From: Candidatus Heimdallarchaeota archaeon
Lineage (GTDB): Archaea > Asgardarchaeota > Heimdallarchaeia > Heimdallarchaeales > Heimdallarchaeaceae
Length of the DNA: 64,000 nucleotides
Direction of reading: 5' to 3'
Assembly (NCBI GenBank): GCA_019057375.1
Contig: DXJF01000011.1
Location: forward strand, 58,922 to 122,921
Shown: one piece after another, positions 6,960 through 35,286 of the stretch
How positions within the stretch are numbered: the first letter of the stretch is position 1
Layout of the letters: every line of letters starts with the position of its first letter
Program-made: the position numbers and the translations under genes
Notes under the pieces: generated by a model
Seen by the model: the letters and a program-made list of their open reading frames with translations, nothing else
Database searches by the model: none
What the model was told of the DNA's origin: nothing

Positions 6960-8870
6960 TCAACCTTGGAAAAGAAATGGAGATATAACTTCTGTTCCAT
7001 ACTTTTCCTTGGCTTCCAATAATCTTTGTCGTTGTTGTTCTAACTCATTAAAGAATTCTTCAGGAACATCCTTTTCATTTTTGAATATTGCATCTATTCT
7101 TTCAATTTTCTTTAAGAATTTCTGAATTCTGATAGAGAATTCTGCTACATACCTTTCCTTACCATAATCAAAATCAAAAGCTTCTTTGAATAAAGCTTTA
7201 ATATCTTCATATTCTGGAATATGACCTATTGGCGTTTCTATTGCAGAATATTCGCCATGAACTCTCTTTTCTGCCCAAAGTAACCATATTTTTTTATCAA
7301 GAATTTCGTCATAGTATCGTCCCTTTTTATCCTTGAGGAAATAGTTTGTTGAGAATATTTTTGGAACCTTATTTTGTGCAATTCGTCTTCCAAAACCTAG
7401 ATGTGCTTCAAGATACTCTCCTAGAGGAACTACTATGAAATCGAGATTAGCCATTGGTTGATGTTTTCTAACACCTGCTTCCCCTAAAGTTGCAGCTGTT
7501 GTTTCAGATTCTACAGAAGCACCAATATAAACACCATGCTCCCAACTGAAAGATTCATAAACTGGAACAGATGTATCGCTGTCTCTTCCTCCATAAATAA
7601 TAGCTGAAACCTCTACTCCATTAGGATCATGTAATGCTTCATCAACATTTTCTAACTCCTCTAATCTTATTGTATAACGAGCATTTGGGTGTGAAAACTT
7701 GAATTCCTTTCCTTCCTCATTACAACAGAAACCTGCATGCCATTCACCAAGCTTAGACGAAGTCCAGTTCATTCCAGTATCTGGAATAGTTACTTGTTTA
7801 CCCATACCTAGCCAGTATGATTTTCCTTCTGAAACCAATATATTAGAAAAAATAGTTTCTCTTGGTGTCATTAAGCTGTTATAGATAACTGGATCATCTT
7901 TTGGACTAACATCCTTAATGATTCCAAAAATCCCTCTTTCAATATTGACAGCCCTAACCTCACCACTTTCATAGATTCTAAGATAAGCAATGTCATCTCC
8001 AATAATTGTGTTTCCTGGAACCATTGCTGTGCTTGTTTTTCCACATGCGCTTGGAAAAGCTCCAAGGAAGTAAGTTTTTCTACTTTTATCTAATGGCCAG
8101 ATGGCGCTAATGAACATATGTTCAGTTAACCAGTCTTCATGAATTGCTTTGTTTATAGCTAAACGAAGTGCAAGTTTTTTCAAACCTAAACTGTTTCCAG
8201 CATATTGATTGTTAACTGATAGAACTCGATTTTCTTGTAGATCAATGTAAATGCGTCTATTATCAACATTTTTTGTTACATATTTATCTGTTAACTCTCC
8301 TGCTGAGTGAATGAAGTAGAAAAAGTCTTCAGAGTCTTCTAATCTTTTAAATTCTTCATAACCTTGTCTATATAGTAAATCTTCAGAATGAGCTACGTAA
8401 GCTGAATCTGTAATTTGCAAAGCGCAAAGTGAAAATTTTGACTTAGTTGGACCTAGACTGAAGAATCTAATAATAGCAATCTTTCCTTCCATTGCTCCGT
8501 CCATAATTTCTAAAACTTCTTTTAGTCCTTCGTCACGATCAACTGTATTGATATGTTGACCATATTTTTCCTTCTCTCCAGCAGGCACTAAAAGTCGTGT
8601 ATTCTCTTTATCACGAGCTTGATCATAATAACCATCAAAATGTACTGTTTGTCCTTCTAGACCTAATTCTATTTCTTCTTTATTGTCAATCGCTAATTGA
8701 CGTACAAAAGCAATATCCTCTAGTGAATCATCTATAACTTTAGCTTTGGTAGGTTTACAGAGAGTAAGATACTCTTCAATAACTCTTTCAACTTCAGGGT
8801 TTTCTAAAGCTTTAAGCTTTTTCAAATCCTCTTTATCTATCCACTTTTCAAGACTCATTTTACAGTCCAT
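6960..8870 (-). CDS. pckG: phosphoenolpyruvate carboxykinase (GTP)
   Basis: 636 aa with the kinase-1a motif FPSACGKTS and PEPCK-GTP-like blocks throughout. Confidence 0.92.
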   Translation of the reverse strand: MDCKMSLEKWIDKEDLKKLKALENPEVERVIEEYLTLCKPTKAKVIDDSLEDIAFVRQLAIDNKEEIELGLEGQTVHFDGYYDQARDKENTRLLVPAGEKEKYGQHINTVDRDEGLKEVLEIMDGAMEGKIAIIRFFSLGPTKSKFSLCALQITDSAYVAHSEDLLYRQGYEEFKRLEDSEDFFYFIHSAGELTDKYVTKNVDNRRIYIDLQENRVLSVNNQYAGNSLGLKKLALRLAINKAIHEDWLTEHMFISAIWPLDKSRKTYFLGAFPSACGKTSTAMVPGNTIIGDDIAYLRIYESGEVRAVNIERGIFGIIKDVSPKDDPVIYNSLMTPRETIFSNILVSEGKSYWLGMGKQVTIPDTGMNWTSSKLGEWHAGFCCNEEGKEFKFSHPNARYTIRLEELENVDEALHDPNGVEVSAIIYGGRDSDTSVPVYESFSWEHGVYIGASVESETTAATLGEAGVRKHQPMANLDFIVVPLGEYLEAHLGFGRRIAQNKVPKIFSTNYFLKDKKGRYYDEILDKKIWLLWAEKRVHGEYSAIETPIGHIPEYEDIKALFKEAFDFDYGKERYVAEFSIRIQKFLKKIERIDAIFKNEKDVPEEFFNELEQQRQRLLEAKEKYGTEVISPFLFQG

Positions 8871-9002: not shown

Positions 9003-9548
9003 TTATTCATCCTCAAATAGTTCTTTGTATAATTTCATCGAATGGCTTATTGTCTTAAATGCTTCTTCTTTTGAATCCCATCCAACAACTTCAACCTTTT
9101 TTCCATGTTCTAATCCTTTATAGGTTTTGAAGAATTCAGCAATTTCGTTCAGGGTGTGAGGGTATACATCATCTAAACAATAGACTCCATGGAAGAAAGG
9201 ATCCTTGGAAGCAACAGCTAAAATTTTGTCGTCGTGTCCTTTCTCATCTTTCATTCGTATAATACCTATAGGTCGAGAAGTTAGAACACATCCAGTAAAT
9301 GTGGGTTCAGAGATTAGTACTAGAATATCTAAAGCATCTCCATCTTCAAAGTATGTTTGTGGTATTAATCCGTAATCACCGGGAAAATGAACAGCTGAAT
9401 GTAACACACGATCTAAATATAGAATACCATCTTTACCTAATTCGTACTTGTTTCTGTTATTCTTAGGATTTTCAATGATAGCATATACTTCTTCAGGAGG
9501 ATTAGGTCCTGTTTCAATTTTATGCCAGAGAGAATCATTCTTCATCAT
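9003..9548 (-). CDS. ppa: inorganic pyrophosphatase, family I
   Basis: YELGKDG...DRVL...PGDYGLIPQT...DGDALDILVL motifs in a 181-aa protein. Confidence 0.92.
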   Translation of the reverse strand: MMKNDSLWHKIETGPNPPEEVYAIIENPKNNRNKYELGKDGILYLDRVLHSAVHFPGDYGLIPQTYFEDGDALDILVLISEPTFTGCVLTSRPIGIIRMKDEKGHDDKILAVASKDPFFHGVYCLDDVYPHTLNEIAEFFKTYKGLEHGKKVEVVGWDSKEEAFKTISHSMKLYKELFEDE

Positions 9549-9689
9549 ATCTTGTCATTTAACTTAAATTGATTTGAGATAAAAATCTTGCCAATGATAA
9601 GCAATAATTCTTACTTTGGCACATTATTCCTTGGGGCGTTTTAATAGTTTCTTTTAACTATTAGAGTAACCTTTCCTAAGAGTCGATGT

Positions 9690-9764
9690 ATGATGTACAA
9701 TGAAAAAAATGACCCGGATGAAGGAGACGGAGACATTCTCCCCCCAGCATGGTCTCCAGGTTAA
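9690..9764 (+). CDS. acidic mini-protein, family copy 1 (24 aa)
   Basis: MMYNEKNDPDEGDGDILPPAWSPG*. A conserved 58-nt upstream block (9631-9689) contains a GGGGCG-TTTAATAG BRE/TATA-like element. The ORF is below the track cutoff. Confidence 0.5.
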   Translation: MMYNEKNDPDEGDGDILPPAWSPG

Positions 9765-9975
9765 TCCTCCTTCCTTTTTTGTTTTTACTCACTAAACTGC
9801 AATTAAACAACTTCTAAATTGTATTCAATCTTTGTAGATTAAATCAATCGAAGTAAGACTTTATGACTAAAATCTTTCATTACTCACTTTATCATTCTTT
9901 TCTCTTGACATTTTTTCTTTGGGGTGTTTTAATAGTTTTGTTGAACTAGTAGAGTACCCTTTCCAAGAGTGAGAT

Positions 9976-10050
9976 ATGATGTACGAACCAAAATATGATC
10001 CTGAAGGCGGAGACGAAGGTATTTTACCACCTATGTGGTTCCCAAACTGA
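9976..10050 (+). CDS. acidic mini-protein, family copy 2 (24 aa)
   Basis: MMYEPKYDPEGGDEGILPPMWFPN*. The upstream block 9919-9975 is nearly identical to that of copy 1. Confidence 0.5.
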   Translation: MMYEPKYDPEGGDEGILPPMWFPN

Positions 10051-10054
10051 AAAA

Positions 10055-10153
10055 ATTTTAGTTGATGAACCTCTTTCTATAGCTAGCTTCAATATTTTTC
10101 TTAACAAGAATTTTTATTGTAAACTAAAATTAGCTGACAATAACTCTCCTAGA
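10055..10153. repeat. duplicate of the 23S rRNA 3' trailer/processing-stem half (97/99 identical to 20289-20387)
   Basis: Direct base-by-base comparison shows two mismatches. Confidence 0.9.
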
Positions 10154-10230
10154 TAAGGTATTTATTTTTGAGATGATTAACGGAAAAAGATAAATTTTGT
10201 CTTCTGTACTCTCAGTAACCATCTTAGTAT

Positions 10231-10842
10231 TTAATTCACTTGAGAGATTAATTCTTTTCTTTTAAATATTGAAGTATATTTATTTTGAATTCGAGAAGTT
10301 GGTTTCCAATCTGAATTGTTATTATGTCCCTTAAAACTACGGTATACTATGCGTTTTCTGCCTTTACCATCAATGAAATATCCATTAAACAATACTTTTC
10401 CAAATTTCCAGTCAGTTGAATCTTTTGGGATTATAACTGAAACTATTTGAACATTTCCATTATCGGATTTTATCGGAAATGCTTTCTCATCCTCATAATC
10501 TAGAGGAGGAGAACTCTCATAAGACGGATAGATTGCAATTTGTATCTGTAATTTAACTAAGATACTTATACTCCCAGGATTTTTAAAACTAATACGAAGA
10601 AAATGTGTAACAATATCTTCAGAATAACGAGATTGTTTAAGCCCACTTTCTACAAGTTTTATCCAAAATATTGCTAATTTTGGTTCATTGAATCTAGTTT
10701 TTCTTCTTGTATAATATAAGCTAATGAATGATGCTACTAATGCACAAATAGATATAATGTCCAAGCTTTCCATTGTTTTGAGATCCCTATTTAAATTAAT
10801 AGCATATATGAAATTTACAAATTGATTGAATGAAAGTAACAT
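10231..10842 (-). CDS. hypothetical membrane-anchored protein
   Basis: One N-terminal TM helix (LDIISICALVASFISLYY). The real start is probably the internal Met MESLD. Confidence 0.4.
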   Translation of the reverse strand: MLLSFNQFVNFIYAINLNRDLKTMESLDIISICALVASFISLYYTRRKTRFNEPKLAIFWIKLVESGLKQSRYSEDIVTHFLRISFKNPGSISILVKLQIQIAIYPSYESSPPLDYEDEKAFPIKSDNGNVQIVSVIIPKDSTDWKFGKVLFNGYFIDGKGRKRIVYRSFKGHNNNSDWKPTSRIQNKYTSIFKRKELISQVN

Positions 10843-10962
10843 GTTTCAGACAAACAATATATTACTCAAACGTATTTAAAACCCAAAAAAATTCTACTAT
10901 AACTAGCTTCAAAATTCACTTAACAACTATTTTTAGTTCACAAAAAATAGTTGTATATTAAC

Positions 10963-12534
10963 TCAGTCATCTAGAGTTATAAAATCCGTAAGAAGTTTCT
11001 GTTGAGTTGAAAATGTTCCATCTTTAAGTCTCTTAATATCATCTATTATTCTTGAAATTGTTTTTCTGTTTTGATTAGTAATTTTATGTTTTAATTGTTC
11101 AACAAGTTCGTCACTTGAAATTAAAACAAATTTCTTTTCAGAGTTATTCTTTGTTTGTGATTCTACGTACAAGCACCAGAATTTCACATTTTTGGCATAT
11201 TGAGGATAAATAACTAAGTCTTTATGTGTTAATGCTAAGGGGGATTTTTTGACTTCTATAATTTCTAATGAACCATCAGGCTCTTCTATAAGTATTTCGG
11301 GTAATATCCAATTTCTTTCTTCAACCTCTGGCGTCTCAATCTTTGGTTGCCACTCCCATTTTTTTCCCTTAAATAGTTGTTGCGCAATTCTGTGACAAAT
11401 CCTTTCCCATAGATATCCTATTATCTCTACACCACCCACTAGATTACAAGAAGGACACCCCGATTTGTTATGGACTCTATTGTTGATTCTTGCTACCCAC
11501 ACATGTTTAGAATTTTTCGAACATTGCCACCACACTTCTCTGTGAGAACCTCCAATTACTTCTTCTGGTGTCAATCCTTCATTTTTTGTTGGATGCCACT
11601 CTTTTGCTATTTCTGGATAAAGAGTTTGTAGTGAATTAAATGGAGATAATCTTCTATGAGAACATATTGGACAACCTGTTTTATATGGCCCAGTTCTATG
11701 ATATACTTTAGAATCCCACACATGTTTAGAATTTTTCGAACATTGCCACCACACTTCTTTATCAGATCCTGCTATTATTTTTTCAGCTGTAAGTTCTCCA
11801 TTTAGTGTTGGATGTAGTTCTTTAGCTATTTCAGGAAATTTTGTAGCAAGAGAATTCGTAACTGAGACTTTTTTATTTGCACAACAAGGACATCCATAAC
11901 CTCTTCTAGTTCTACTATCAATAACTGCTCTCCAAATATGATCTGGTCCTTTATCACAAATCCAATAAACTCTTCTTCCTGAACCAGGAGATACTTGATT
12001 TGGAAGAATCCCTCTATTCTTATCATAAAACCATTGAGCACCTATTTCTGGGAACAATGCTTCTAAAGATTCTTCTTCTAAAACTAGTTTTCCTGAACAA
12101 TATGGACATCCTGATTTATTTATACCGCTTCTATCATTTATTTTAGCAGGCCAGTTATGTTTAGGGTTTTTCAAACATTGCCACCACACTTTTTCACTAG
12201 ATTTCATAATTGCGTTTTCAGGAGTAAAATCTCCATTTTTTGTTGGATGCCATTCAGCTGCTACTTCTGGAAAGTTGATTGCTAATGAATTTGTAACTGA
12301 AACTCTTTTACTAGCACAAAATGGGCATCCTGTAATTTTTTTTACTCCGGTTCTGTTGTTTGGACTAGTTGGCCATTCATGGTCTGGTCCTTTCTCGCAT
12401 TTCCACCAAATTGGTTGTTTGGAACCATAGGAAATATTTTCGGGTTTTAAGTTTCCATTTTTTGTTGGATGCCATTGTTTAACTAGTTCAGGAAAATCAG
12501 CAATAGTTTTAGTTTCAATTTTATTCTTTGACAT
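10963..12534 (-). CDS. five-fold treble-clef zinc-ribbon repeat protein with C-terminal PD-(D/E)xK-like nuclease domain
   Basis: It has five repeats of WHPTKNG-x-L-x-PE...VWWxC...H-x-W...GCPxC, resembling the 'probable zinc-ribbon' DUF4379-type repeat. The C-terminus has EEPDGSLEIIEVKK, a PD...ExK pattern. Confidence 0.65.
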   Translation of the reverse strand: MSKNKIETKTIADFPELVKQWHPTKNGNLKPENISYGSKQPIWWKCEKGPDHEWPTSPNNRTGVKKITGCPFCASKRVSVTNSLAINFPEVAAEWHPTKNGDFTPENAIMKSSEKVWWQCLKNPKHNWPAKINDRSGINKSGCPYCSGKLVLEEESLEALFPEIGAQWFYDKNRGILPNQVSPGSGRRVYWICDKGPDHIWRAVIDSRTRRGYGCPCCANKKVSVTNSLATKFPEIAKELHPTLNGELTAEKIIAGSDKEVWWQCSKNSKHVWDSKVYHRTGPYKTGCPICSHRRLSPFNSLQTLYPEIAKEWHPTKNEGLTPEEVIGGSHREVWWQCSKNSKHVWVARINNRVHNKSGCPSCNLVGGVEIIGYLWERICHRIAQQLFKGKKWEWQPKIETPEVEERNWILPEILIEEPDGSLEIIEVKKSPLALTHKDLVIYPQYAKNVKFWCLYVESQTKNNSEKKFVLISSDELVEQLKHKITNQNRKTISRIIDDIKRLKDGTFSTQQKLLTDFITLDD

Positions 12535-12598
12535 CCAACCAGACCTTTCTTCTTCTTATTCCTGTATATCTAGAAGATTTTGCTTCTTAAAGTTAGTT

Positions 12599-12619
12599 TC
12601 TGATCGAACCAATTTCCAT
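12599..12619. repeat. second piece of the duplicated 23S trailer (matches 20389-20408 with one 1-nt indel)
   Basis: tctgatcgaaccaatttccat compared with tctgacgaaccaatttccat. Confidence 0.75.
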
Positions 12620-12830
12620 ACACATACTATGAAGCTCATCCAAGTTTATTATAACTTGAATAGTCTTGACGAGTAGTTATCTCGTTCCCCTCGTATGTGG
12701 AGAGGGGGAATTTGATTTTAACAATTGCTCACCCTTATCTTTTACATTTTTTGCTGCATTTATGTGAGTATTCACCATTTTACCACACTTTTTACATTTT
12801 GCGATGTCATAAGAACCAATTTTTCTTTCG
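12599..12830 (-). ncRNA. candidate omega-RNA (reRNA) of the TnpB-like gene, with its guide in 12599-12619
   Basis: By analogy with IS200/IS605 TnpB, the scaffold would overlap the gene's 3' end. Hairpins are CCCCTC/GAGGGG (12687-12707) and CAAGTT/AACTTG (12642-12659). Homology to the rRNA trailer begins abruptly at 12619. Confidence 0.3.
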
Positions 12831-14578
12831 ACTTTTCCTCCACAACCATTATGTTTTGTACTTGTTCCTCTTGGATTAACATAAACAAGTTTAACCTTAT
12901 ATCCAAGTATTGAAGACGCTAATAATACTGCTTTTTCAAATATTTCTTGATTATCAGGCATATTGTATATTGCTTTAGCTAAAGCTCCTCTTTTTCCTCT
13001 AGGATCTATTTGAAAGTCTTCGACACAAAGTAGATTACTCTTATTTTTTACAATTTCAGCAGCAATGAAATGAGTTGCAAAATTTTTAATTTCTTCAAGA
13101 ATGTTTTTCCTTCTTCTGTAGACTCTGTACAATTCTCCCTTAGTCTTAACATACCCTCTAGTGTCTTTCTTCTTTCCCTTATTCGTTAAACTATAGCTCA
13201 ACTGAGGGATAATAACATTTGATAGTTTATTGTATTTTCTAGCTAGAAGCAACAAATTCTTTGATAAGGGCTCTTTGTTAGAAAGCGCAATCATATGTTC
13301 ACTAACTCGGTTAATATCTACTCCTATGGATTTTACTTTCTTTGTACTCCCTTTCTTTGACAATTGCTTGAGAAGTTTTGTACTAAGAAACTTACTGGGA
13401 GTTCCTTCTATAATAACAGAAACTCTAACCTTATAGCTAGGTGAACTGTTGCTGCGAATGAGCAATGATCTAATTCGAGCTCCTTTGTTAAGATATTCTA
13501 AGATTTTCTTTGAAAAGATAAGCTTACATGTAATTCTAGGGAATCCTCTAAGAACGAATCCCAACTCGAAATACCCATCTTTTCTTGCAAGTTCCGTCAT
13601 AACTTTTGAACTACCAGGTCTGAGAACAACATGTTTTGGACACATAATTAGTTGGATAGGTAATCTTCCTTTCTTTTTCTTTCTAAATGGTGGATGAACA
13701 ATTTTAGTTGGGTGAGTTTTCTGAATTATTTCTATAACAGTCTTCTCTAATGTAGAGTAGAGTGCGAAGATCACTATTGCTCTTAAAGCAGAAAATAGTC
13801 TTCTATTTTTCTCACCTATTGATTCAGCAATTCTTTTACTTAAAAATTTCAAGCTTTTCCAACGAGAAGGATGTACAGTATTATTCCACGAAGTAAGAAG
13901 AGGTGCTACAATATCCGCCTTTAAAGCTAACAAACGTAAGTTTTCTAGAAACACATTTGTTTTTGAATTGATTGGTTTTGATGTTAGTTCTAGGCATTTG
14001 GACTTATTACACTTCTGTATCGCTCTTTCGAATTCTTTCTGTGCTAAAAGTGGAAGCATAGTGTTGAATTTTAATCGTTGATTGCAAAATTTGTCTATTT
14101 GCCTTCTTGTACTGGTTAGTACATTGATTACATATAATCTCTTTACCTTCCATCTGTAGATAAGAATACTTTCAATTCTAGGACTTCTTCCAAAAATATA
14201 CCATTCAATTGCTTGCTCTTTCCAATTCGACATTAAATCGAAAAATACTTCAACTTTCCTCTCTAAGGTAACTGTGCCTTTGGCTGCTAAAAATAAGTAA
14301 GTATATGCACTATCAGCAATACTAGGACTCTTCTTTGTGATTCTTTTGATGTTAGTTAAACCCACCATATTCGGCATTTTGGGTTCATTTCTTGCAATTG
14401 ATAATGCAGCGTTTATTGCCTTTTTATCATGAATTAAATCTTCTTGTCTGACTTGCAAACCTTTTACTCTTTGGTTAGCTTCTTTTTCTTGTATTCTACG
14501 TTTCTCTCTAGTACCCTCAAACCTAACACCCATTTGATAAGTGCGAGTGACTAATGTTTGCTTTGTTTGAGAGGACAT
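12677..14578 (-). CDS. tnpB: TnpB-like RuvC/zinc-ribbon protein with a long N-terminal extension (633 aa)
   Basis: RuvC-I is IGVDINR, RuvC-II is LLCVEDFQ, the zinc ribbon is CGGK...CKKCGK, and the C-terminal block is NTHINAAKNV. No tnpA is adjacent. Confidence 0.8.
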   Translation of the reverse strand: MSSQTKQTLVTRTYQMGVRFEGTREKRRIQEKEANQRVKGLQVRQEDLIHDKKAINAALSIARNEPKMPNMVGLTNIKRITKKSPSIADSAYTYLFLAAKGTVTLERKVEVFFDLMSNWKEQAIEWYIFGRSPRIESILIYRWKVKRLYVINVLTSTRRQIDKFCNQRLKFNTMLPLLAQKEFERAIQKCNKSKCLELTSKPINSKTNVFLENLRLLALKADIVAPLLTSWNNTVHPSRWKSLKFLSKRIAESIGEKNRRLFSALRAIVIFALYSTLEKTVIEIIQKTHPTKIVHPPFRKKKKGRLPIQLIMCPKHVVLRPGSSKVMTELARKDGYFELGFVLRGFPRITCKLIFSKKILEYLNKGARIRSLLIRSNSSPSYKVRVSVIIEGTPSKFLSTKLLKQLSKKGSTKKVKSIGVDINRVSEHMIALSNKEPLSKNLLLLARKYNKLSNVIIPQLSYSLTNKGKKKDTRGYVKTKGELYRVYRRRKNILEEIKNFATHFIAAEIVKNKSNLLCVEDFQIDPRGKRGALAKAIYNMPDNQEIFEKAVLLASSILGYKVKLVYVNPRGTSTKHNGCGGKVERKIGSYDIAKCKKCGKMVNTHINAAKNVKDKGEQLLKSNSPSPHTRGTR

Positions 14579-14712
14579 AGTGTAACTGTTAATATTATAT
14601 GTACTTTCATTTATAAACTGAGAAAAAAAGATGATTCTTCTTGAATTATTATTGTATTACTTCTGTACCATTTATTTTTGTTTTTTTACTCTTAATAAAC
14701 AGTACATATGTT

Positions 14713-17172
14713 CTATGATAATTTTAACCAGAATTCAAAATCATCTAAAACTTTGATGTGTTTGTCTCCTACGATTACATCTGCAAGAATTTCCAAAGGA
14801 ATTTCCTCGTTATGTCCTTGGCTTTTAGCTTGAATTATATTCAGAGTGAAATCCCAATCATATGACCTTTTATTATCTAATAACAGTTTCTTGATCTCCT
14901 TTAAACCTTTTATTCTAATCTCATCGTCATTTTCATGAGCATAAAGATAGAAGTAGTACTCTAATTCAATCGATTCTTTAAATCTTGATTTTTCTATGTA
15001 CTTCATAGCTTTATCTAGGTATTCAAACCCTTCTTCCCTTCCTTGAGAAAGAAGTAAAGATGCATAATTAATCAAGTTATTTGCATTTTCAGAATCTATC
15101 TCATTTGCTTTGTTAAAATACTTCTCAGACATTTCAAGATTCTTGAAATCATGATACATTAGCACTGCAAGTTGTCCCCAAATCTCTGCATTCTTAGGTT
15201 CAATTTTTATTGCTTTCTTCAAATGGGATTCAGCCTTTTTATAATCATTATAAATCTTAGACACGAAATATGAATAATTATAATGACCAAATGCATTGTT
15301 TGAATCTAACTCAAGTGCCTTCTTATACATCTTTTCTGATTCTGAATAGCGTTTCACTCTTTTCTGCAGGAATATAGCATAATAAACATAGTACGTAGAA
15401 TTTTCTGGAGATTTCTCAATTGCCTCTTTTAGGTATCTCTCCGCTTTTTTATAATCTCCTAATTTCTCTGAATAAAAATATCCTATATCTAGAATATATT
15501 CAGCATTTTCAGGATTCAAAACTAGTGCTTGATTATAATATGAATTAGCTTTTTTGATATCCTCTCTTGAATAAGCTAGAAACCTTGCATAATTTAAAAC
15601 TCCACGTGAATAATTAGGATTTGTATCAATTGTTTTTTCAAAATACTCCTCCGCTAGATTATAGTTTTTCCGAATTTTTTCTTGAAATAAAGCATAACCT
15701 TCTAAAATTGTTGGCATATTAGGAGATATTTCTAAGGCTCGTTTGTAATACTCTTCAGCCTTTTTATAGTTTTCATCATCCTTGACAATTTCCCATAAAA
15801 AGCCTGCGTAATTACTTAGGTTTGCAGAACTGTGTGGGTTCAATTCCAATGCTAATTTGTAGAATTCTTCTGCTAATGTGTGATTCCCCACTATTCTATG
15901 CAGGAAACTTGCATAATTTACTACTAAAGCTGGAAATTTTGGGGCAACAGATAGTGCTCTTTTGTATATTTTCTTTGCCTTTTCGATGTTTAATGTAGAC
16001 TGTAGGAAGAAAGCATAATTAGTTAAAAGATTGATATTATTTCCAAAGATTTTCAGACCACTTTCATAAATGTCAATGGCTTTATCAGGATTCTTCCATT
16101 TCCATTCGGCAGCCTTCAACTCAACGTATTTCCAAGCTAGTAATTCTTCGCTTAGTTCAGATAAAGCAAACGAAAAAGCTACTGAAAATTTCTTTTGTTC
16201 CTTCGGATTTTTTTGTTCAATATCTTTTGGTATCTCTCCTAATCGTTCATAAAATTGATTAATAAGTCCTTCAATTCTTTCTTTGTCTGGAAGTTTCAAA
16301 GAAAATTCCTTTAGAATCAATAGCATTAGTTCATCAAAATCTCTATGCTGTATCCATACACCATCCCTATCTTTAATCCAATTACCTAGTTTGGTGTTTG
16401 GAAACTCATTTCCTATCCAATAAACTCCCCATGGAAGAGCGCTTTCGGGGAGTTTTGAAAGAATTTCGGCTATGCTCCCGTCATTTCCACCATATCCCAT
16501 GAATATAAGTCCTGTATCAGAAAGAACCTTTTGAATAGCTACTTTAGTGTTTTTTGCAAGAGTCTTAGTTTCAATTTCTGTATTTTTTGGCTCAAGTCTA
16601 GCATCACCATGAAGTTTAATGACTAAAGGTTTCACCCTCGAAGATCTTACAAAACCTGCTAAAGTGTCATGCACAATTACAAGTGGTTTTTTATTTGTGT
16701 ATAGATATAATGCATCTGCAATTAAATCATCAAAATTGACAGTCAAAGCTACATTACAATGCTTTCCATATTTTTCATCTGACATTAAACAAGAAAGGAC
16801 ACCATAACCAAATCCTGGATCTTTTTTATCAATTATGTTCTCAATTTCCTTTTGCCTTTCTTCAGGTTTATGAAATAATAATTGAATTATTTTACCATAA
16901 AATAAAGCTGCTTGAGAGTCATCATAATTTGGGAGAATCTCTTTGATATTTTGAAGAGAATAATCTGCATCTTTTCCTTTTCTCTGCCTAATTAATCGAA
17001 AGAGCCATCTTTTTGCGAGTTCTCCTGCTGTTGGAATACCTGAAGAAACAGAACACCCCGCTCCAAGAAAGAACACATATTTGCATTCTTCATAATTATC
17101 CATATTGTATTTGATTTTTCTTATGAATTCTTCAATATCCATCTTTTTTATTTCTATATTTGCTCCTTCCAT
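14713..17172 (-). CDS. SIR2-family (SIR2_2-type) domain fused to about 11 TPR repeats
   Basis: The N-terminus has FFLGAGCSVSSGIPTAGELA, TVNFDDLIADAL, VIKLHGD and FMGYGGNDGSI. The C-terminal 450 aa consists of repeated A-x3-Y-x-K/R-AL-x3-P TPR units. Confidence 0.78.
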   Translation of the reverse strand: MEGANIEIKKMDIEEFIRKIKYNMDNYEECKYVFFLGAGCSVSSGIPTAGELAKRWLFRLIRQRKGKDADYSLQNIKEILPNYDDSQAALFYGKIIQLLFHKPEERQKEIENIIDKKDPGFGYGVLSCLMSDEKYGKHCNVALTVNFDDLIADALYLYTNKKPLVIVHDTLAGFVRSSRVKPLVIKLHGDARLEPKNTEIETKTLAKNTKVAIQKVLSDTGLIFMGYGGNDGSIAEILSKLPESALPWGVYWIGNEFPNTKLGNWIKDRDGVWIQHRDFDELMLLILKEFSLKLPDKERIEGLINQFYERLGEIPKDIEQKNPKEQKKFSVAFSFALSELSEELLAWKYVELKAAEWKWKNPDKAIDIYESGLKIFGNNINLLTNYAFFLQSTLNIEKAKKIYKRALSVAPKFPALVVNYASFLHRIVGNHTLAEEFYKLALELNPHSSANLSNYAGFLWEIVKDDENYKKAEEYYKRALEISPNMPTILEGYALFQEKIRKNYNLAEEYFEKTIDTNPNYSRGVLNYARFLAYSREDIKKANSYYNQALVLNPENAEYILDIGYFYSEKLGDYKKAERYLKEAIEKSPENSTYYVYYAIFLQKRVKRYSESEKMYKKALELDSNNAFGHYNYSYFVSKIYNDYKKAESHLKKAIKIEPKNAEIWGQLAVLMYHDFKNLEMSEKYFNKANEIDSENANNLINYASLLLSQGREEGFEYLDKAMKYIEKSRFKESIELEYYFYLYAHENDDEIRIKGLKEIKKLLLDNKRSYDWDFTLNIIQAKSQGHNEEIPLEILADVIVGDKHIKVLDDFEFWLKLS

Positions 17173-17219
17173 TAATAACAGATATTAATTTTCAGCTATA
17201 TAAATCTGTGATAATACTA

Positions 17220-19937
17220 TTAGAGATGTTTTATTGAATCTTCATTTATTTCTCTTTTACATTTGGGACAAATAGTTTTAACTTTCATCCATTCTTGAAG
17301 ATGATTGTTATGAAACGTATGACCACAATCTATTATGTAGACTAAATTTTCTTCTGCTACCATGTAATTCAAACATATTTCACACTTTCTTGTTTTCTTT
17401 CCACAGTTTAAACAAATAAGTGGTCCTCCATCCTTTACTCTTTCAAGCAAAGCATCGCAGAAGTAACAGAATAACTTTTCATCTTGCTTCTTAATATTGC
17501 CAACAGTGCTTTTCTCTTCAGTGATTTTTACCTCTTTCTTAGGATTTTCTTGTAGTCTACTCTGTTTAATTTTTCTGAGTACTACTCCTTGATTTGTGAA
17601 AAACTCTGCAAGTGAAGGTTTGCTCTGTTCCTTTTTCTGCTTTCCAAATCTCATATATCCTATAAACAATATGAAAAATAATCCAGAAACAATAACTGAC
17701 CACGGAAATAGCTTTCCAGAATTATTCTTCTTCAGATAGCTGAATAACAACCATCCAGATATAAAGAAAACATATTTTGCATATCTGAAAAGGAACTTGT
17801 TTTTACTATGAAGATCTTTGTAGAAGGTATTTGTAGAAGAGTTGACTACTACTGAAAACCAAAAGAAAGTAGAAGCAAATAGTATGGTTGTAAAAACATT
17901 GAACGAGATTTTACCCAAGATAACAAATTCAAACCCAGTATTATCACTGTTAGCTATTGAAACTAATCTCCCAAGAATCAGAAAGAATCCCACGTTCTTC
18001 AGGATTACAAAAACAGCTGCTAATCCCAGTAATACTTTTCTCATGTTACCTAAAATACTGAAATTGAAGAAACGCTCTGTTTTAATATATCCTCCATTGA
18101 ATTGAAGTTCGTATTCTTCATCATCAAGTTTTACTTTAGCATTCCTGTTTGTTTCTTTGTTTTTCTTTTCTAAATGTCTTACTAAAACAATTAATGCTAT
18201 TGCATCTAGAATGAGACTAATGCTCATTAGAGTTGGTAATGAAGGTTTGAAAGGTTTTGAGTCACTGCTTGGGTTAGGAAGTTCAAAGGGGTTCGTCGGT
18301 GTGACAACTTCTTCAGAAGTAGCTGCGAGTCTGTAGCTAAGCTCCCCTATTGTAACCGATAAACCTTCACCATAGATTGATAATATTATTTCTATTTCTT
18401 GATAACCTTGGTTAATTTCTATGATTACTCTATCATTGATCGTTTGTTTATCATTGAATGATTGAAAGAAAACCTGATTATCGTTTATCTTAATTCGCAG
18501 ATTGAATTGATCAACAGAAGAGTAAAATTCGTTGTATAAATTCAAGGAGAAAGAAAGATTGAAGGTAGTTGAAGAAGAATCAAAATAGAAAACATCTGTG
18601 AATTTAACTGTTAAAGGTCCTGTAATTGATGTTTCATAAGTTTTTGAGGAGACCATCGTTTTTTCTAGAGTGCTATTTTCATCAAGTATAGGAACGGGCT
18701 CTATTTCAATAGTACTGGTATTGAGTAGGTAAAAAATACCCTCTCCTGTTGCTATTCCATAAACCCGAAAAGCAATATTAGAGGAGTAATTTACAGTGTA
18801 GGTATCAATAATACTTTCAGGATAGCTGAAATGAATAGCCCCTGAATAGATGACATCGGAATCCGAAAGAATTTCATAATTTAAAATAGGTAAGATTGCT
18901 GAACCTATATAATCATAATATAACGAAATGAACAAATTCTGTTCACTAATGCTAGAAAAAGGTTTTAGTGATGATAAATCAAAGGAATGGTCTACTGAAG
19001 GGCCATCGCAGGAAAACCAATCAAAAGATTCTTCTGGAATTTCGTCTTCGAGAAGTTGGAGTTCTCCAAACAAAGCTATATTAGTAAACCATATCTCATC
19101 TACACCTAGGTTAACACAGAAATAGAAACGGATTATGTTCGTCCCCTGCTCTAACGGAATAGAAAAAGAGACAATAACAAAAGGAACTTTAGAAAAACTT
19201 GTAGTAGCGATGATTGTGTTATTTATTTCTACTTCTAAATATCGAGAAAGGGCACTAAAGGAATTTGTATTAAAAGAAAGAGTTACGTTTAAAGTGGTGG
19301 AACCATTGATTGAATAAACTGCTGTTTCAACATAATCACTTCTGACACCTGAAAGATCTCCATAATAGCCTATTTGACCAGGATTACAAGGAAGGGAGGT
19401 TAAATTCTTATCAAGAACAGGAATTGTAATTGGTTCTATTGTTGATGAACTTAATATTTGAATAGCGCCAGAATTAAGGATATTCGAAGTTTTACCTTCA
19501 CATGAAATAACAATAATCATTGAACCGATGAAGTTTTGAGGATAAGAAAATGATTTAGAAATAGAGTGTTCATTAGAATCCTGATAAATACGGTTAATGT
19601 TAATTTCTACTTCAGTAGTGTCCAAATACAAAATAATCGTTAATCCATTTGAGTCAGTCCTATCACCAGAAAAGAGAAAAAATATAGTTAAACTATTATA
19701 TTCTTGAAGTTCAAGATTGACTAGTTCAAAAGTAAAATTTTGTTTTACAGAAGTTGAGTCATAAGAATACAGTATATTTTCATCTATTATAGTAGAGCTA
19801 TAAATAGAAGGGGGATTAGGAACGTTATTTTGATTTCTTGCAATAGCTAAAGAACTAGTAAAACAAAAGAGTGTTAACACTAATAACATGTTTCTAGTTG
19901 TGTTTTTCATTATCAGTTTTATAATCCGAAAATTCAT
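17220..19937 (-). CDS. giant-family surface/membrane protein with cytoplasmic zinc ribbon plus RING-H2-like finger
   Basis: It has a signal peptide, an extracellular region of about 550 aa paralogous to 30317..35260, and multiple TM helices. The C-terminus reads CEICLNYMV-x-CGHTFHNNH-x-CPKC. Confidence 0.7.
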   Translation of the reverse strand: MNFRIIKLIMKNTTRNMLLVLTLFCFTSSLAIARNQNNVPNPPSIYSSTIIDENILYSYDSTSVKQNFTFELVNLELQEYNSLTIFFLFSGDRTDSNGLTIILYLDTTEVEININRIYQDSNEHSISKSFSYPQNFIGSMIIVISCEGKTSNILNSGAIQILSSSTIEPITIPVLDKNLTSLPCNPGQIGYYGDLSGVRSDYVETAVYSINGSTTLNVTLSFNTNSFSALSRYLEVEINNTIIATTSFSKVPFVIVSFSIPLEQGTNIIRFYFCVNLGVDEIWFTNIALFGELQLLEDEIPEESFDWFSCDGPSVDHSFDLSSLKPFSSISEQNLFISLYYDYIGSAILPILNYEILSDSDVIYSGAIHFSYPESIIDTYTVNYSSNIAFRVYGIATGEGIFYLLNTSTIEIEPVPILDENSTLEKTMVSSKTYETSITGPLTVKFTDVFYFDSSSTTFNLSFSLNLYNEFYSSVDQFNLRIKINDNQVFFQSFNDKQTINDRVIIEINQGYQEIEIILSIYGEGLSVTIGELSYRLAATSEEVVTPTNPFELPNPSSDSKPFKPSLPTLMSISLILDAIALIVLVRHLEKKNKETNRNAKVKLDDEEYELQFNGGYIKTERFFNFSILGNMRKVLLGLAAVFVILKNVGFFLILGRLVSIANSDNTGFEFVILGKISFNVFTTILFASTFFWFSVVVNSSTNTFYKDLHSKNKFLFRYAKYVFFISGWLLFSYLKKNNSGKLFPWSVIVSGLFFILFIGYMRFGKQKKEQSKPSLAEFFTNQGVVLRKIKQSRLQENPKKEVKITEEKSTVGNIKKQDEKLFCYFCDALLERVKDGGPLICLNCGKKTRKCEICLNYMVAEENLVYIIDCGHTFHNNHLQEWMKVKTICPKCKREINEDSIKHL

Positions 19938-20288
19938 TTATAAACTGAGTAAAACCATATTTACTATATCTGAATCTTGTTGGGTTTAAATAGATATTTT
20001 GCATTTCATTATTGAGATAGATGTTCGTAATTACATTCCTTAAGTCTTTAAGATCAAAGAAAAAAGGGGGACCTATTCTAGAAGAGATTCTACTTATTGG
20101 TATAGCAGTTCTTGTCTTTGCAATAATCTTTGCACTAATTTTTAGCTTAATAGATTGGTCTACATCTCCTTTTGAAGAACTTTTCAAGTGAAGAGTTTTT
20201 TCTTTCAATTTCAAGAAACTTAGACTTTTAGTGGGTTTATAAGGGGAATTACTATATTTTCTTTGAAGCTAGCAATACGCAAGATAAC

Positions 20289-20408
20289 ATTTTAGTCGAT
20301 GAACCTCTTTCTATAGCTAGCTTCAATATTTTTCTTAACAAGAATTTTTATTGTAAACCAAAATTAGCTGACAATAACTCTCCTAGAATCTGACGAACCA
20401 ATTTCCAT
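20289..20408. repeat. 23S rRNA 3' trailer (master copy of the repeats at 10055-10153 and 12599-12619)
   Basis: Direct comparison with the two repeat pieces. Confidence 0.9.
20364..20388 (-). promoter_or_regulatory. 23S processing-stem, 3' half
   Basis: Perfect 25-nt reverse complement of 24014-24038. Confidence 0.85.
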
Positions 20409-20749
20409 TTTTCCTAACTACGCTTGAGCAATTAGTGATTGTGGGCTAAACATCTCGCCGAAGCTCGACGCGTACACCCCAATTCTATCAACCGGATCTT
20501 CTTTCCGCGCTCTCATCTATATCGAAGGTTACTGTCACCAGTCCCCTTATAGTGATACAGAGTGGGTGACTCGTTTCGAGAGTAGCTTCGAGCGTTGATG
20601 CATTCCGCTCTTATCTACGAGGGCTTAGCTACCCGGCGATACCCTTTAGGATAACCGGTACACCAGAGGCCCCAGCCGCCTGTTCCTCTCGTACTGTGGA
20701 GACTTTACTCTCAATCACCCGCCAGCACCATCAGATAGAATCCAACCTG

Positions 20750-20904
20750 TTTTGCGTGAATTTAAGCCCGAGTATTGATCTTCGATAGAAGGGATTTCCC
20801 GTAAGGGGGGTTTACAACTATCAAAGACTTTTACATACTTGGATGAAGTTCAATTGAAGTATTACTACTATACTTCTACAGAACTCCACTATAGCTTAAA
20901 TCCA
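20750..20904 (-). other. about 155-nt AT-rich insertion (putative intron) in 23S, between GACCGTTGTGAGA and CAGGTTGG
   Basis: The universal GTGAGA|CAG junction is interrupted. The insertion ends pair with each other (ATTTAAGC/GCTTAAAT). Confidence 0.7.
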
Positions 20905-21052
20905 TCTCACAACGGTCTAAACCCAGCTCACGTTCCCTTTTAATGGGCGAACAACCCCACTCTTGGCGGCTGAATCACCACCAAGCTAGGAAGAGCCGAC
21001 ATCGAGGTAGCAAGCCGTGAGGTCGATGTGAACTCTTACCCACGACAACTCC

Positions 21053-21441
21053 GTTCAGGGCTGCGCTTGCGCTATGCGCACATCGGCTTTAAGGATCAGT
21101 TGTCACCTGGTATAACGACATAGGCAGTTACATAATCCTTAACCTTATCTTCATGTCCTCACGCTTATTTTTGGCTCTCCATCTTTCGTGTTTATTTAGG
21201 GATTTATCTATTCTAAATGGATTTGTGACAGAAATTAGATTCACTCTGCTCAAGTTTTGTAGCCTTTTAATGGCGAAAACTTTCGTTTCCTCACGTGGAA
21301 GAAAGACTGAAGCTATAATTAAATTCACTCAATTTTACTTTTCTGCCTCGGAAAAGATGGACTTTATCAATAAGCGTTACAGACAGAGAGCACTCTTTGT
21401 GATAAACAATCACTTCTTCGTGATAAACACTCAGAAGCGCA
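21053..21441 (-). other. about 389-nt insertion (putative intron) in 23S, after GGGGTAAC
   Basis: The universal GGGATAAC|AGG...AAGAGTTCACATCGAC block is interrupted. TGCGC/GCGCA pairing sits at the two junctions. Boundaries are accurate to within a few nt. Confidence 0.65.
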
Positions 21442-24013
21442 GTTACCCCTGGAGTAACTTTTCTGCCACCTCCGCCGCCTACTAATGGCACTGCGAAGGA
21501 TCGCTAGGCCCTGCGTTAACATCTGCGAACTGTATTGGTGAGTTCACAGTCAACCGAGCTTTTGCCCTTGCACTCTTCACCGGATTTCTGTCCCGGTTGA
21601 GCTCGGCTTTGGGCCCTCTTGATATCTTTTCAAGAGGCTACCGCCCCAGTGAAACTGCCAGGCAGGGGGTGTCCCCCTCGCAAGAGGTAAGTCGTACCAA
21701 TGCGCAAGGTCAGTATTTCAAGTTCGACTCCCCTACATCCCGGAGAATGTAGGATCAGCATCTCCTGACTATGCTATGCATGCACACCAATACAACAGCC
21801 CCTGACAGCAGTAAAGCTTCACAGGGTCTTCTCTTCCCGATGGTGCGCTCCAGACTGTTCGCTGGACTGTGGGTTCAGTAGGCTTCGGGTGGAGACAGTG
21901 GGCACCTCGTTGGTCCCTTCATGGACGTCTGTAATTAGCAGACAAGGCATTTGCCTACCTTAAGAAGCTCATAGTTAGCTCCGGCGTTTACTGGGTCTTA
22001 GCCTGGTTGAACCCAGGTTTCAATCACCAGCACCGGCCAGGATTCACTAACTGTACTAAGGCTTTCGCCCTTGCAGTTAGCTATGTTTTTATTAAACAGT
22101 CGGGTGCCCCTAGTCACTGCGACCTGGTAAGGCATACACCTTCCCAGGCATCCCTTATACCCAAGGTACGGGACTAATTTGCCGATTTCCTTCACCCGAG
22201 CTCCCCTAACACGCTTTAGCCTTCTAAGCTAGCCACACCTGTGTCGGTTCTGGGTACGGTCACGCGTAATCGTTCTCTTTGCTTTTTCATGGGCTGTTGG
22301 GGTTGATGGCAGCCAGCAACCTATGGCCGGCCTCTTCATCTATTCTTCTGGTTCTCACCTTAACGGTTCTTCCCAGAATTCTATAATTTAACTAGGATAT
22401 GCTCCTAGGCCACCTACCCACCAGCGTTAGCTCAGAGCTTGCGTCGCCGCGTCTATACGCGTGGTACAGGAATATGAACCTGTTTCCCTTTCGAACGACT
22501 CGTTTTAAGATCGTCCTTAGGACCGACTAACCCTTGGCTGACGAACAGTGCCAAGGAACCCTTGGGCTTTCAGCGATGAGGATTCTCACCTCACTATGCT
22601 CCTACTACCACCGAGATCTGCAAATCTAATCGGTCCACTGGGAATCACTCCCCAGCTTCTGCCCAACCAGATCGCCCCCCTACCTGAGACTCTTGCGGAG
22701 TCCAAATGGGTATCGGGACCCGGTTTAGCCCCGTCCATTTTCTGAGCCCAACAACTCGATGAGTAAGCTGTTACGCTTTTTTTAACGGATAGCTGCCTCT
22801 AAGCTTACCGCCTCATTGTCTTAGTCGTTGGACGTCATTCTGTTTAACATTTAACCGGGATTTAGGGCCCTTAACCCATTGTAGGGTTGTTCCCCTTTCG
22901 GCCATATCCCTTGCGGATACGCGCCCGTCTGTCGCCTTCTACAGCGCTTGCAAGTTCGGAGTTGGAAGGGAGGGTGAGGATTTCACTCCCCAGAACCTCC
23001 CGTCCGTAGCTCTACCTCACAAGCCGCCTTCAGCGACGCTATCCTGTGGTGATACTTCGGGGGGAACCAGCTATCAGCAGTTTAGATTGGTCTTTTGCCA
23101 CTATCCCCAACTCAGAGGAATGAATTGCATATCAATAACCCTTCAGGCCTCCACGCTCCTTTCGAAGCGCTTCACCTTGGTCAGGGATAGATCAACTGCT
23201 TTCGGGTCTTACACCTGTGACTTCACGCCCTTATCGGACGTCGCGCCTTGCCGAAGCTGCGCGCTGGTCGCTTTCGCTACGCCACCGTATTAACTTAGGC
23301 TTGCCACAGACATAAACTCCTCGGCCCGTGTTTCAAGACGGAACGGATAACTCTGGTCCTCTCAGCTCGTACTACCACCTCACGATGGGTTCCTTCACCG
23401 AGACTCTACCCTTTCAAGCCATCCACGTCTGTTACCATGTAGTTTCAGGGACTTTTCACTCTCGTATTTCGAATACTTTTCAACTTTCACTCACGTTACT
23501 AGTGCGCTATCGGTCTAGGGGAGTATTTAGGCTTGGGAGTTAGTCCTCCCATATTTGCGCGACAAATCCAAGCCACGCTAGTCTTGATACTACTAAGCCG
23601 AGCGCTTACGTTTACGGGGTTATTACCCTCTATGACGCCCCTTTCCAGGGGCCTTCAACTTCACGCTTTCGGTCTATGTTGTAGTCAAAACACCACATCT
23701 ACCTTAATTTTTCAAAAAAGGAATTCGGTTTGGCCTGTTCCGGTTTTACTCGCCGTTACTACCGGAATCACAATTGTTTTCTTTTCCTGCAGGTACTTGA
23801 ATGTTTTGGTTCCCTGCGTTCCCCGCCATTACTGGCTGTTACAGTTTATTAGACTGTAACCGGAAATCCGATTCGGGAATCTGTGGATCGTAGACTGTCT
23901 GCGTCTTCCCACAGCGTTTCGCCGCTTACCGCGCCCTTCATCGGCTCCCTAGCCGAGTCATCCACTACATGGCGTATGCATAGTGTAGGTTACTCTAGAA
24001 ATCAGTTTTCGCC

Positions 24014-24038
24014 TTCTAGGAGAGTTATTGTCAGCTAA
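24014..24038 (-). promoter_or_regulatory. 23S processing-stem, 5' half
   Basis: Perfect 25-nt reverse complement of 20364-20388. Confidence 0.85.
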
Positions 24039-25511: not shown

Positions 25512-25847
25512 ATGAAAGAAGTATTTCCGGAAGCAATAAGAAAACTACCTGAAGCAGATATTCCCATACAAGGACTTACAGCCTTTTTATCCCAAGATAA
25601 GAATCATCAAATTGTCTTTATGCATTTCAATCAAGATGTAGAAGTTCCCGCACACTCACATGGAGCTCAATGGGGAATTGTGCTAGAAGGGGAAATAGTA
25701 TTAACAATAGAGGACAATGAACAAAAATATACTAAAGGAGATCGTTTCTATATTTTGGAAGGAGAGACACATTCCGCAGAAATACATGCAGGATATGCTA
25801 GCATGGAATTTTTTGCAGATAACGATAGATACAAAGCTAAGGAATAG
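25512..25847 (+). CDS. cupin-domain protein
   Basis: HSHGAQWGIVLEGE...GETHSAE cupin motifs. Confidence 0.75.
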   Translation: MKEVFPEAIRKLPEADIPIQGLTAFLSQDKNHQIVFMHFNQDVEVPAHSHGAQWGIVLEGEIVLTIEDNEQKYTKGDRFYILEGETHSAEIHAGYASMEFFADNDRYKAKE

Positions 25848-25859: not shown

Positions 25860-25940
25860 TTAAGCTGGTGACCAAAATGGTGGAGTTATGCTTTCGTCGC
25901 CATCTTCAGGATCGTATTTCGGTTCATTCATCATGTTCAT
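25860..25940 (-). CDS. acidic mini-protein, family copy 3 (26 aa)
   Basis: MNMMNEPKYDPEDGDESITPPFWSPA*. The upstream block 25941-25998 aligns with those of copies 1 and 2 (ttggggtgctttaatagc...cctttcctgag). Confidence 0.5.
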   Translation of the reverse strand: MNMMNEPKYDPEDGDESITPPFWSPA

Positions 25941-26017
25941 CTCAGGAAAGGTTATCATTTTAGTTAGACAAAGCTATTAAAGCACCCCAAAGAAAAGACT
26001 GACAGTTACAGCTATTT

Positions 26018-26172
26018 CTGATTGGAAGAGTTGGCTAATAGATAATTGGCTTGATGAGTTTGAAAGATTAAAACCTTATTTTCTTAATTCAGAGCAATTA
26101 TGACAACTAAAAAACTCCAAGGAATACAAGAACCCCGAGAGAAAGATTCTACAGAAGTAGAGAAATAAGGGG
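26018..26172. repeat. degenerate copy A of [giant-ORF 3' end + 16S trailer stem half]
   Basis: Frame fragment ...DNWLDEFERLKPYFL compares with INWLEEFEKLKEYFF at 35213-35257. The core ccaaggaatacaagaaccccgagagaaagattctacagaagtagagaaataagggg compares with 35287-35345. Confidence 0.75.
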
Positions 26173-35260: not shown

Positions 35261-35286
35261 TATTCAATTTGGGTGAAATAAAAAAG

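Follow-up and report, generated by a model that had tools for sequence, protein, structure and literature searches.

Here we analyse a 64,000-nt stretch of contig DXJF01000011.1 (the whole of which is referred to as the window) from a low-GC (~31%) Asgard archaeon of the Heimdall group, in which a cassette of accessory genes (cassette U, 7705 nt, 12620-20324, minus strand) lies directly downstream of the 23S rRNA gene and is bracketed by direct repeats that include the 23S trailer. Reading along the minus strand, the 23S rRNA gene (20412-23989; Rfam LSU_rRNA_archaea, 2462 bits, full length) is followed by a complete trailer, by the cassette, with its terminal hairpin and genes for a small membrane protein, a RING-finger protein, a SIR2-TPR protein and a TnpB-like protein and its omegaRNA-like scaffold, and then by a second, interrupted trailer copy, beyond which lie a mini-ORF (open reading frame) and the inorganic pyrophosphatase (PPase) gene. 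The repeat on the PPase side is termed copy A and that adjoining the 23S gene copy B. An original prediction, made from the sequence alone, had taken this repeat-cargo-repeat layout as the product of a circular element that integrated by recombination within the trailer. The layout itself is real, its junctions being reproduced by contigs of one sample; the account given here differs in what the repeats are made of and in how they probably arose. Loci and contigs used for comparison are labelled L002-L064, of which L059-L062 are the AB_125-type contigs.

The two repeats are identical at 97 of 99 positions (10055-10153 against 20289-20387; 97.98% identity, blastn E = 4e-45), and a repeat search extends the pair to 10049-10153 and 20283-20387 at 96%. 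The trailer strand at 20364-20388 pairs perfectly, over 25 bp, with the leader strand of the outer 23S processing helix (24014-24038, minus strand; 100% complementary, as also seen on cofolding), as had been predicted, and the corresponding segment of copy A (10130-10153) is complementary to the same leader at 24 of 24 positions. The trailer repeat matched no Rfam family at the gathering threshold. Homology to cassette-bearing genomes that lack a nearby rRNA gene ends at 20324-20333. Copy B consists of three parts, all on the minus strand: (i) t1, the first 21 nt beyond the 23S gene (20388-20408), which is conserved in all relatives, forms the trailer strand of the inner processing helix by pairing in the cofold with leader GGCGAAAACTGATTTC, is separated from the outer helix by a 3-nt bulge, and matches the omegaRNA guide described below, (ii) c, the 63-nt true trailer core (20325-20387), which includes the 3' strand of the 25-bp helix and of which copy B holds the functional copy, and (iii) d, the initial 36 nt of the cassette (20289-20324), comprising the hairpin arm GAAGCTAGC and part of the loop. 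Sequence d also heads the cassette in L060 and L061, beside a 142-aa gene, and in L063, beside a tRNA-Cys fragment. On these alignments the repeat is a composite of 63 nt of real trailer and 36 nt of the cargo's own terminal hairpin arm, and it was wrongly read as pure rRNA trailer, given that the distal 36 nt (20289-20324 and 10055-10090) travel with the cassette away from rRNA.

Copy A has the same parts, on the same strand, in an interrupted state. Its trailer core, c' (10091-10153), is followed by d' (10055-10090), a truncated cassette left end that forms a scar fused to the 3' end of the mini-ORF. Judged from the same comparisons, this left copy is a scar made of trailer and a truncated cassette end, and it bears a 36-nt relic of an earlier, truncated cassette. 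The copy of the first 21 trailer nucleotides, t1' (12599-12619), is held apart from c' by a 2445-bp insertion (I2, 10154-12598, minus strand), which splits copy A exactly between t1' and c', where the bulge separates the inner from the outer processing helix and 21 nt beyond the right end; this 2.4-kb insertion is probably later than the cassette. Segment 12599-12619 reads TCTGATCGAACCAATTTCCAT and segment 20389-20408 reads TCTGACGAACCAATTTCCAT, with one additional base in the former, and the window contains the 15-mer CGAACCAATTTCCAT at these two places only, with 0.01 occurrences expected. Both t1 and t1' carry an A where every relative has a G (CGAACCGATTTCCAT), the resulting allele, AATTGG, being found only in this genome and in both copies. 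Because this base change is unique to the genome and present in both segments, t1' is a true paralogue of t1 and not a chance match, so that the predicted duplicate in two pieces is borne out for the smaller piece as well as for the larger.

The segment t1' lies immediately outside an omegaRNA-like scaffold (12620-12710, minus strand) that overlaps the 3' end of the TnpB-like gene. Seven TnpB-like homologues (42-59% amino acid identity to the window protein) have in common, in their 3' flanks, two stems, a variable hairpin and the tail AGCTTCATAGTATGCGA, with compensatory changes at 8 of the 15 consensus scaffold pairs, and the loci diverge right after this conserved tail. A covariance model built from six non-window homologues, with the window sequence excluded, gave a full-length match at 12620-12710 (70.3 bits, E = 4e-17); all homologues scored E <= 4.5e-16, and an eighth copy, in L023 and outside the model, scored E = 1.2e-15. 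The window holds only this one scaffold, none further having been found when they were sought beside the repeats of the 16S trailer. The scaffold ends at 12620 and trailer homology starts at 12619, which makes the 21-nt piece the predicted omegaRNA guide. The guide position holds ATGGAAATTGGTTCGATCAGA, the first 15 nt of which are the 15 nt that follow the 23S gene. To our knowledge, every TnpB element derives its omegaRNA guide by transcription of the DNA immediately beyond its right end; the ribonucleoprotein would here be programmed with the first 15-21 nt past the 23S gene.

The gene that the scaffold overlaps encodes a 633-aa TnpB/Cas12f-like protein (12677-14578, minus strand) with a Pfam TNB domain (E = 9e-8). 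Its match to the NCBIfam model guided_TnpB covers profile positions 12-388 of 389 (E = 4.5e-8) at 32.8 bits, against a curated cutoff of 100, and PDB profile matches to TnpB and Cas12f (E ~1e-6) align the RuvC/zinc-finger region. The RuvC residues D421 and E520 are conserved. The family comprises 20 proteins found, the named ones coming from Heimdall- and Thor-group genomes, and has V(D/N)THxNAA as motif III; the window protein reads VNTHINAA (residues 598-612) against NADYNAA in AsCas12f and 8hr5, so that the canonical motif III Asp is aligned with His, and the Asp two residues earlier is also missing in about half of the family. In genome HM4_B41 (L044 10001-10260, L032 1-590) a related TnpB-like element splits the PPase gene at about codon 59, and the PPase coding sequence resumes at the base right after the scaffold, which identifies the scaffold end as the right end of the element. 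These sequences indicate that the TnpB-like family is mobile and that its right end is the end of the scaffold. Flanking DNA occupies the guide position, without a target duplication, both at the L044/L032 joint and in the divergence of loci after the tail. On the HM4_B41 contig the 16S gene adjoins a homologue of the 1647-aa protein described below. Other TnpB-like homologues lie directly downstream of tRNA-Asn (L046 163-239, L057 4801-4877) or ~90 nt from a convergent tRNA-Cys (L056 2624-2697, L058 6967-7040).

The cassette as a whole recurs elsewhere. It is collinear with L060 over 7659 nt (window 20333-12689) at 72.5% nucleotide identity, gap-free across the four genes, and L059-L062 carry the same block of small protein, RING, SIR2-TPR and TnpB-like genes without flanking repeats, among different neighbours: a PLD-like gene on one hand, and tRNA-Cys, a metallo-beta-lactamase-fold (LactB) gene and ribosomal protein genes on the other. 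In three contexts homology ends at the first base of the hairpin stem GAAGCTAGC, and this shared left boundary, together with the scaffold end, sets the cassette limits at 12620-20324. By these sequence comparisons the cargo core is a discrete cassette. A variant in L063 lacks the SIR2-TPR gene and has a RING gene with 84% nucleotide identity to that of the window. At the left end, the gene for a 56-aa small membrane protein (20021-20191, plus strand) is followed by the hairpin GAAGCTAGC...GCTAGCTTC (9-bp stem, ~42-nt loop); the protein shares 86% amino acid identity with its homologue in L045, 70% with that in L060 and 50% with that in L058, and is a called gene in L058, L060 and L063. It is followed by a 905-aa protein with a C-terminal RING finger (17220-19937, minus strand; Pfam zf-RING_2; 63% amino acid identity to L060) and by an 819-aa SIR2_2 and TPR protein (14713-17172, minus strand; Pfam), which has PADLOC matches to pAgo-associated SIR2 (E = 2e-35) and 80% amino acid identity to the AB_125-type homologue P0023. 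Similarity between the left-end AGCTTCAAAG and the right-end tail AGCTTCATAG is at most suggestive, and the hairpin was dropped as a candidate canonical insertion sequence (IS) left end, the hairpin-small-protein-RING module of L058 being inverted relative to the TnpB-like gene. In L063 (150-201) a 27-nt fragment of a tRNA-Cys 3' half lies 24 nt beyond the cassette left end. Over their N-terminal ~400 residues, the RING protein and the 1647-aa protein (30317-35260) match the same L058 protein at 33-34% identity, and the two are thus probably paralogous.

All contigs with this arrangement stem from a single sample (ERZ6006181 / JGI 3300032170 / SRR5036727), and a mis-resolved 99-nt repeat has to be considered, in which case the true state would be an empty site with a 10.2-kb circle apart from it, or a second strain would be involved. 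Formally, the alternative resolution is an empty site and a circle of 10,234 bp, and the Logan contig does break within copy A (position 10093). The ENA, JGI, NCBI and Logan contigs match the window at 100% identity, the one exception being the tandem DUF4379 repeats of the NCBI assembly; copy A is traversed with the same flanks by three assemblies (ENA, JGI and NCBI) and copy B by two (ENA and JGI), the NCBI contig ending before copy B. Both single-nucleotide polymorphisms (SNPs) that distinguish the copies lie with both flanks within ~110 nt, so that single ordinary reads can phase them, and a trailer copy beside the gene of a 203-aa protein in I2 is needed under any resolution. No empty-type junction was found among same-sample contigs. 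We regard an assembly artefact as highly improbable.

A search with PPase of species-representative genomes returned 38 loci, among which the predicted empty site does exist. In L008, whose PPase is 99% identical, PPase is followed by a mini-ORF, a single trailer and 23S; one repeat there directly connects the sequence that flanks copy A on the left with that flanking copy B on the right. Adjacency of 23S and PPase is found in L008-L014, L021, L026, L045 and L051-L055 (more than 12 related genomes and metagenome contigs), and the content of the spacer between them varies from nothing to one to three mini-ORFs or a ~530-aa helical-repeat gene. This last gene, in the cassette's spot in L009, L010, L013 and L026, is conserved and convergent with 23S and has a weak MalT-like TPR match. 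None of the related 23S-PPase loci has a homologue of the 203-aa, DUF4379, SIR2-TPR or RING proteins; the gene for the small membrane protein persists in L045, as does the hairpin, and L044 has a TnpB-like copy. The sole repeat copy of L008 has the identical scar and junction; the L055 contig, with the same trailer type, breaks off after the beginning of the scar, and L009 and L011 resemble further small deletions, or precise loss. The single-copy relatives show this to be an insertion/deletion polymorphism in a hot spot, and in this comparison the 23S-PPase region is a hypervariable spot in this Heimdallarchaeial clade. In another subclade (L015, L017, L020, L022 and L025) the PPase gene and a cupin gene (window 25512-25847) lie ~2.4 kb apart with no 23S between them, so that the block of 23S and cytidine-deaminase genes is itself variably placed.

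Whatever the history of the layout, it has to produce a joint between the right end of the cassette and the trailer's first base. With nucleotide precision, the right end of the cassette adjoins base 1 of the trailer copy t1'-c', and its left end, d, is fused to the end of the complete trailer t1-c that serves the 23S gene. Because the breakpoint falls within 1 nt of the scaffold end, it argues for cleavage and joining at a right end, and not for a random breakpoint or a crossover at an attachment (att) site; the trailer had been proposed as an attachment or landing site, and t1', which starts right after the omegaRNA scaffold, points instead to an IS200/IS605-type joint. In IS200/IS605-type elements right-end joining leaves no target duplication. 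We lean, with moderate confidence, towards an explanation that combines an IS200/IS605-style right-end joint at the 23S 3' boundary with homologous exchange, and the layout is better accounted for by a TnpB-type element than by an integrase of viral type.

The sequences show the anatomy, the empty sites, the discreteness of the cassette, and the scaffold with its boundary; the order of events, the enzyme and any activity of the TnpB-like protein are inferred. In the mechanism that we propose, the cassette, or its TnpB right end, would have been joined to the 23S 3' boundary by transposase-like cleavage and joining. The 23S-adjacent trailer would have been kept or restored through homologous exchange with a scar-type chromosome copy sharing 36-120 nt, archaea often being polyploid; integration of a circle of cassette plus trailer would be an equivalent route. 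RadA-mediated loop-out across the 99-120-nt repeats could then yield a single-copy scar such as that of the closest relative. The SNP pattern fits this sequence of events: the scar allele of d, CAAC, is found in copy A and L008, the cassette allele, CGAC, in copy B, L045, L060 and L063, and the private t1 allele in both copies. To take the two copies as attL and attR of one event is too simple, L008 having the scar as its only copy.

An alternative without a mobile element is that unequal exchange duplicated a unit of trailer plus cassette in tandem, that the second cassette was mostly deleted, and that relatives lost the rest via the repeats. The scar d' is indeed a truncated cassette left end preceded by trailer, as a decayed second copy would leave, and L008, L009 and L011 form a series of ever shorter remnants. 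A random breakpoint is, however, unlikely to fall within 1 nt of the omegaRNA scaffold end, gene conversion would have to be invoked for the unique t1 allele that both copies carry, and the cassette is present at a different locus in other lineages. Segmental duplication followed by decay is accordingly improbable in our estimation.

The second alternative stays closer to the original prediction: a circle carrying the cassette and an 84-nt trailer copy may have recombined, Campbell-fashion, with the chromosomal trailer, either homologously or through an integrase encoded elsewhere. The direct repeats around the cargo and the single-copy empty site in relatives speak for such integration, as does a SNP distribution that fits one crossover between SNP2 and SNP1; there are also an analogous repeat-cargo-repeat array at the 16S trailer, the adjoining tRNA-Cys 3' fragment in L063, and elements integrated beside the single 16S gene of Ca. 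Heimdallarchaeum (PMC8813620). The circular or ectopic trailer-bearing element that it calls for did not appear in any collection searched: a 27-mer of the trailer gave 0 viral contigs and 5 metagenome contigs, all of them ordinary 23S-PPase loci, and same-sample contigs held no circle-type junction (small-protein gene, C..C haplotype, TAAGGTATT). Furthermore, 36 nt of the supposed att site are the cassette's own end, the AB_125-type cassette has no flanking repeats, and the circle presupposes a joint of right end and trailer that would itself need an IS-type event. Lastly, the predicted absence of an integrase holds for the window ORFs scanned. The Pfam scan covered all window ORFs of at least 120 aa except 913-2772, 2765-3565, 3788-4600, 5340-6275 and 62540-63982, five ORFs of the end regions, four of which have housekeeping Pfam labels on the identical ENA contig; it revealed no integrase and no TnpA (Y1 transposase). 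Searches with Pfam, NCBIfam and PADLOC likewise gave no recombinase, with no recombinase domain in the 203-aa, DUF4379, TnpB-like, SIR2-TPR, RING, 56-aa or overlapping 106-aa proteins or in the scanned neighbouring ORFs. Taken with the direct repeats and empty site in its favour, Campbell-type integration is possible but doubtful.

Several observations weigh against a right-end joint combined with homologous exchange as well. The bases 5' of the cassette left end (ATATT, ATAAT and ATGGG) differ from the GAAAA 5' of t1, so that a canonical insertion at the 23S boundary dependent on a target-adjacent motif (TAM) is not demonstrated; the independent insertions are few, and the 'GAAAA|AT' common to the 23S end and a position near the cassette left flank is a weak likeness. 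Motif III without its canonical Asp makes present nuclease activity, and hence homing, doubtful. The TnpB-like gene holds a conserved position beside tRNA-Cys in L056, L058, L059-L062 and L064, the L063 contig ends after the same guide start, and L057 retains the TnpB-like gene next to the same LactB gene, all of which argues that the gene is not highly mobile. The lack of a TnpA among the scanned ORFs, the long-loop hairpin and the inversion in L058 leave the 7.7-kb block unproven as a transposon. Every scenario requires at least two events, and the arrangement is known from one sample only.

A further reading is more speculative. The four-gene block may constitute a functional RNA-guided system and not a transposon in decay; the TnpB-like protein, with His/Asn where the third RuvC Asp is expected, would then act as a nuclease-impaired, guide-directed DNA binder, in this genome with its guide aimed at the 3' boundary of the single 23S gene. 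The block has remained collinear and gap-free across its genes while the proteins diverged to 56-80% identity. We consider this reading unlikely; if true, possible roles of the system are the termination or insulation of rRNA read-through, or the coupling of the SIR2 effector to a selected DNA site. The live 23S trailer, at a distance of 7.7 kb, is still matched by the guide, a self-targeting configuration that the cell must tolerate or use.

Among known systems, the cassette comes closest to IS200/IS605 TnpB elements with omegaRNA (such as ISDra2 and IS1341-type TnpB-only elements), which it resembles in having (i) a TnpB-like protein with RuvC and zinc-finger regions, (ii) a structured RNA that overlaps the 3' end of the gene and ends at the right end, with flanking DNA as guide, and (iii) no target-site duplication, a family member cleanly interrupting a gene at the scaffold end. 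It differs from them in that the protein is ~640 aa rather than ~400 and only distantly similar, below the NCBIfam cutoff, in the His/Asn that replaces the motif III Asp, in a TnpA not seen among the scanned window ORFs, in a recurrent unit that is a 7.7-kb four-gene block and not the TnpB gene alone, and in a guide whose matching sequence persists at the 23S 3' boundary, at a distance of 7.7 kb. TldR-type proteins are nuclease-dead TnpB derivatives that act as RNA-guided transcription factors. The window protein is like them in that a RuvC catalytic residue may be lost, its gene keeps a fixed position in several genomes and the guide matches nearby host sequence, and unlike them in that its RuvC and zinc-finger region is mostly intact and its predicted target is an rRNA trailer, not a promoter. 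Finally, integrative elements are known at the 3' ends of stable-RNA genes, both the archaeal ones that target tRNA genes and the mobile elements HeimM2/HeimV2, integrated beside the single 16S gene in Ca. Heimdallarchaeum (PMC8813620). Shared with these are accessory or defence-like cargo directly downstream, a full and a partial copy of the RNA gene 3' region as brackets, and empty sites; the cassette differs in having no recognised integrase or homing endonuclease family, a repeat that is partly cargo, and a repeat boundary that is a TnpB right end.

No description of the 23S-trailer case, or of this protein and RNA family, was found in the literature searched. The family as delimited here, which combines TnpB-like proteins of ~640 aa with an omegaRNA supported by covariance and with a recurrent cassette, is newly defined in Asgard archaea, the archaeal group closest to eukaryotes. 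The locus suggests an integrase-free route by which accessory, defence-like genes may reach the 3' end of an rRNA gene, with a memory of the rRNA boundary kept as the guide. It also carries a warning: as part of the repeat here belongs to the end of the cargo itself and one of the copies is an old scar, a repeat-cargo-repeat layout beside stable-RNA genes is by itself no evidence of att-site integration.

The insertion I2, which interrupts copy A, contains two genes on the minus strand. The larger (10963-12534) encodes a 523-aa protein with five DUF4379 zinc-ribbon repeats. It had been described as a zinc-ribbon nuclease; the nuclease part is a guess from a PD-(D/E)xK-like motif read by eye in a C-terminus with no Pfam or significant PDB sequence match. 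The NCBI assembly of the same sample has ~620 nt more of DUF4379 repeat than those of ENA and JGI (window 10963-12534 compared with L002/L007), which makes the repeat number uncertain. The smaller gene (10231-10842) encodes a 203-aa ORFan with no homologue among 5.8 billion proteins.

On the far side of copy A lie the genes for PPase (9003-9548, minus strand) and PEPCK (6960-8870, minus strand), and a mini-ORF encoding a 24-aa peptide (MMYEPKYDPEGGDEGILPPMWFPN; 9976-10050, plus strand), the stop codon of which abuts copy A. Its paralogues lie at 9627-9729 (plus strand) and 25893-25996 (minus strand). This mini-ORF is part of a set of three paralogous mini-genes (9627-9729 and 9913-10050, plus strand; 25860-25996, minus strand) that share a conserved promoter-like upstream region and encode peptides of ~24 aa with the consensus EPKYDPE.GDE..PP.W.P. 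Copies of these mini-genes are found beside rRNA trailers and in the variable spacer in many related genomes.

The 16S gene (35432-36942, minus strand) lies 11 kb from the 23S gene; no 5S rRNA was detected in the window. The 23S gene is 3578 nt long, ~590 nt above the Rfam archaeal model, an excess that would fit expansion segments or an insertion. There are three direct copies of the 16S trailer (26096-26174, 29741-29868 and 35269-35449), the middle one including the last 18 nt of 16S, and these bracket the gene of a 1045-aa STAND NTPase and that of the 1647-aa protein. A ~80-nt unit of the 16S trailer also occurs in four copies each in L022 and L025, at a spacing of ~1-2 kb and often beside a mini-ORF.

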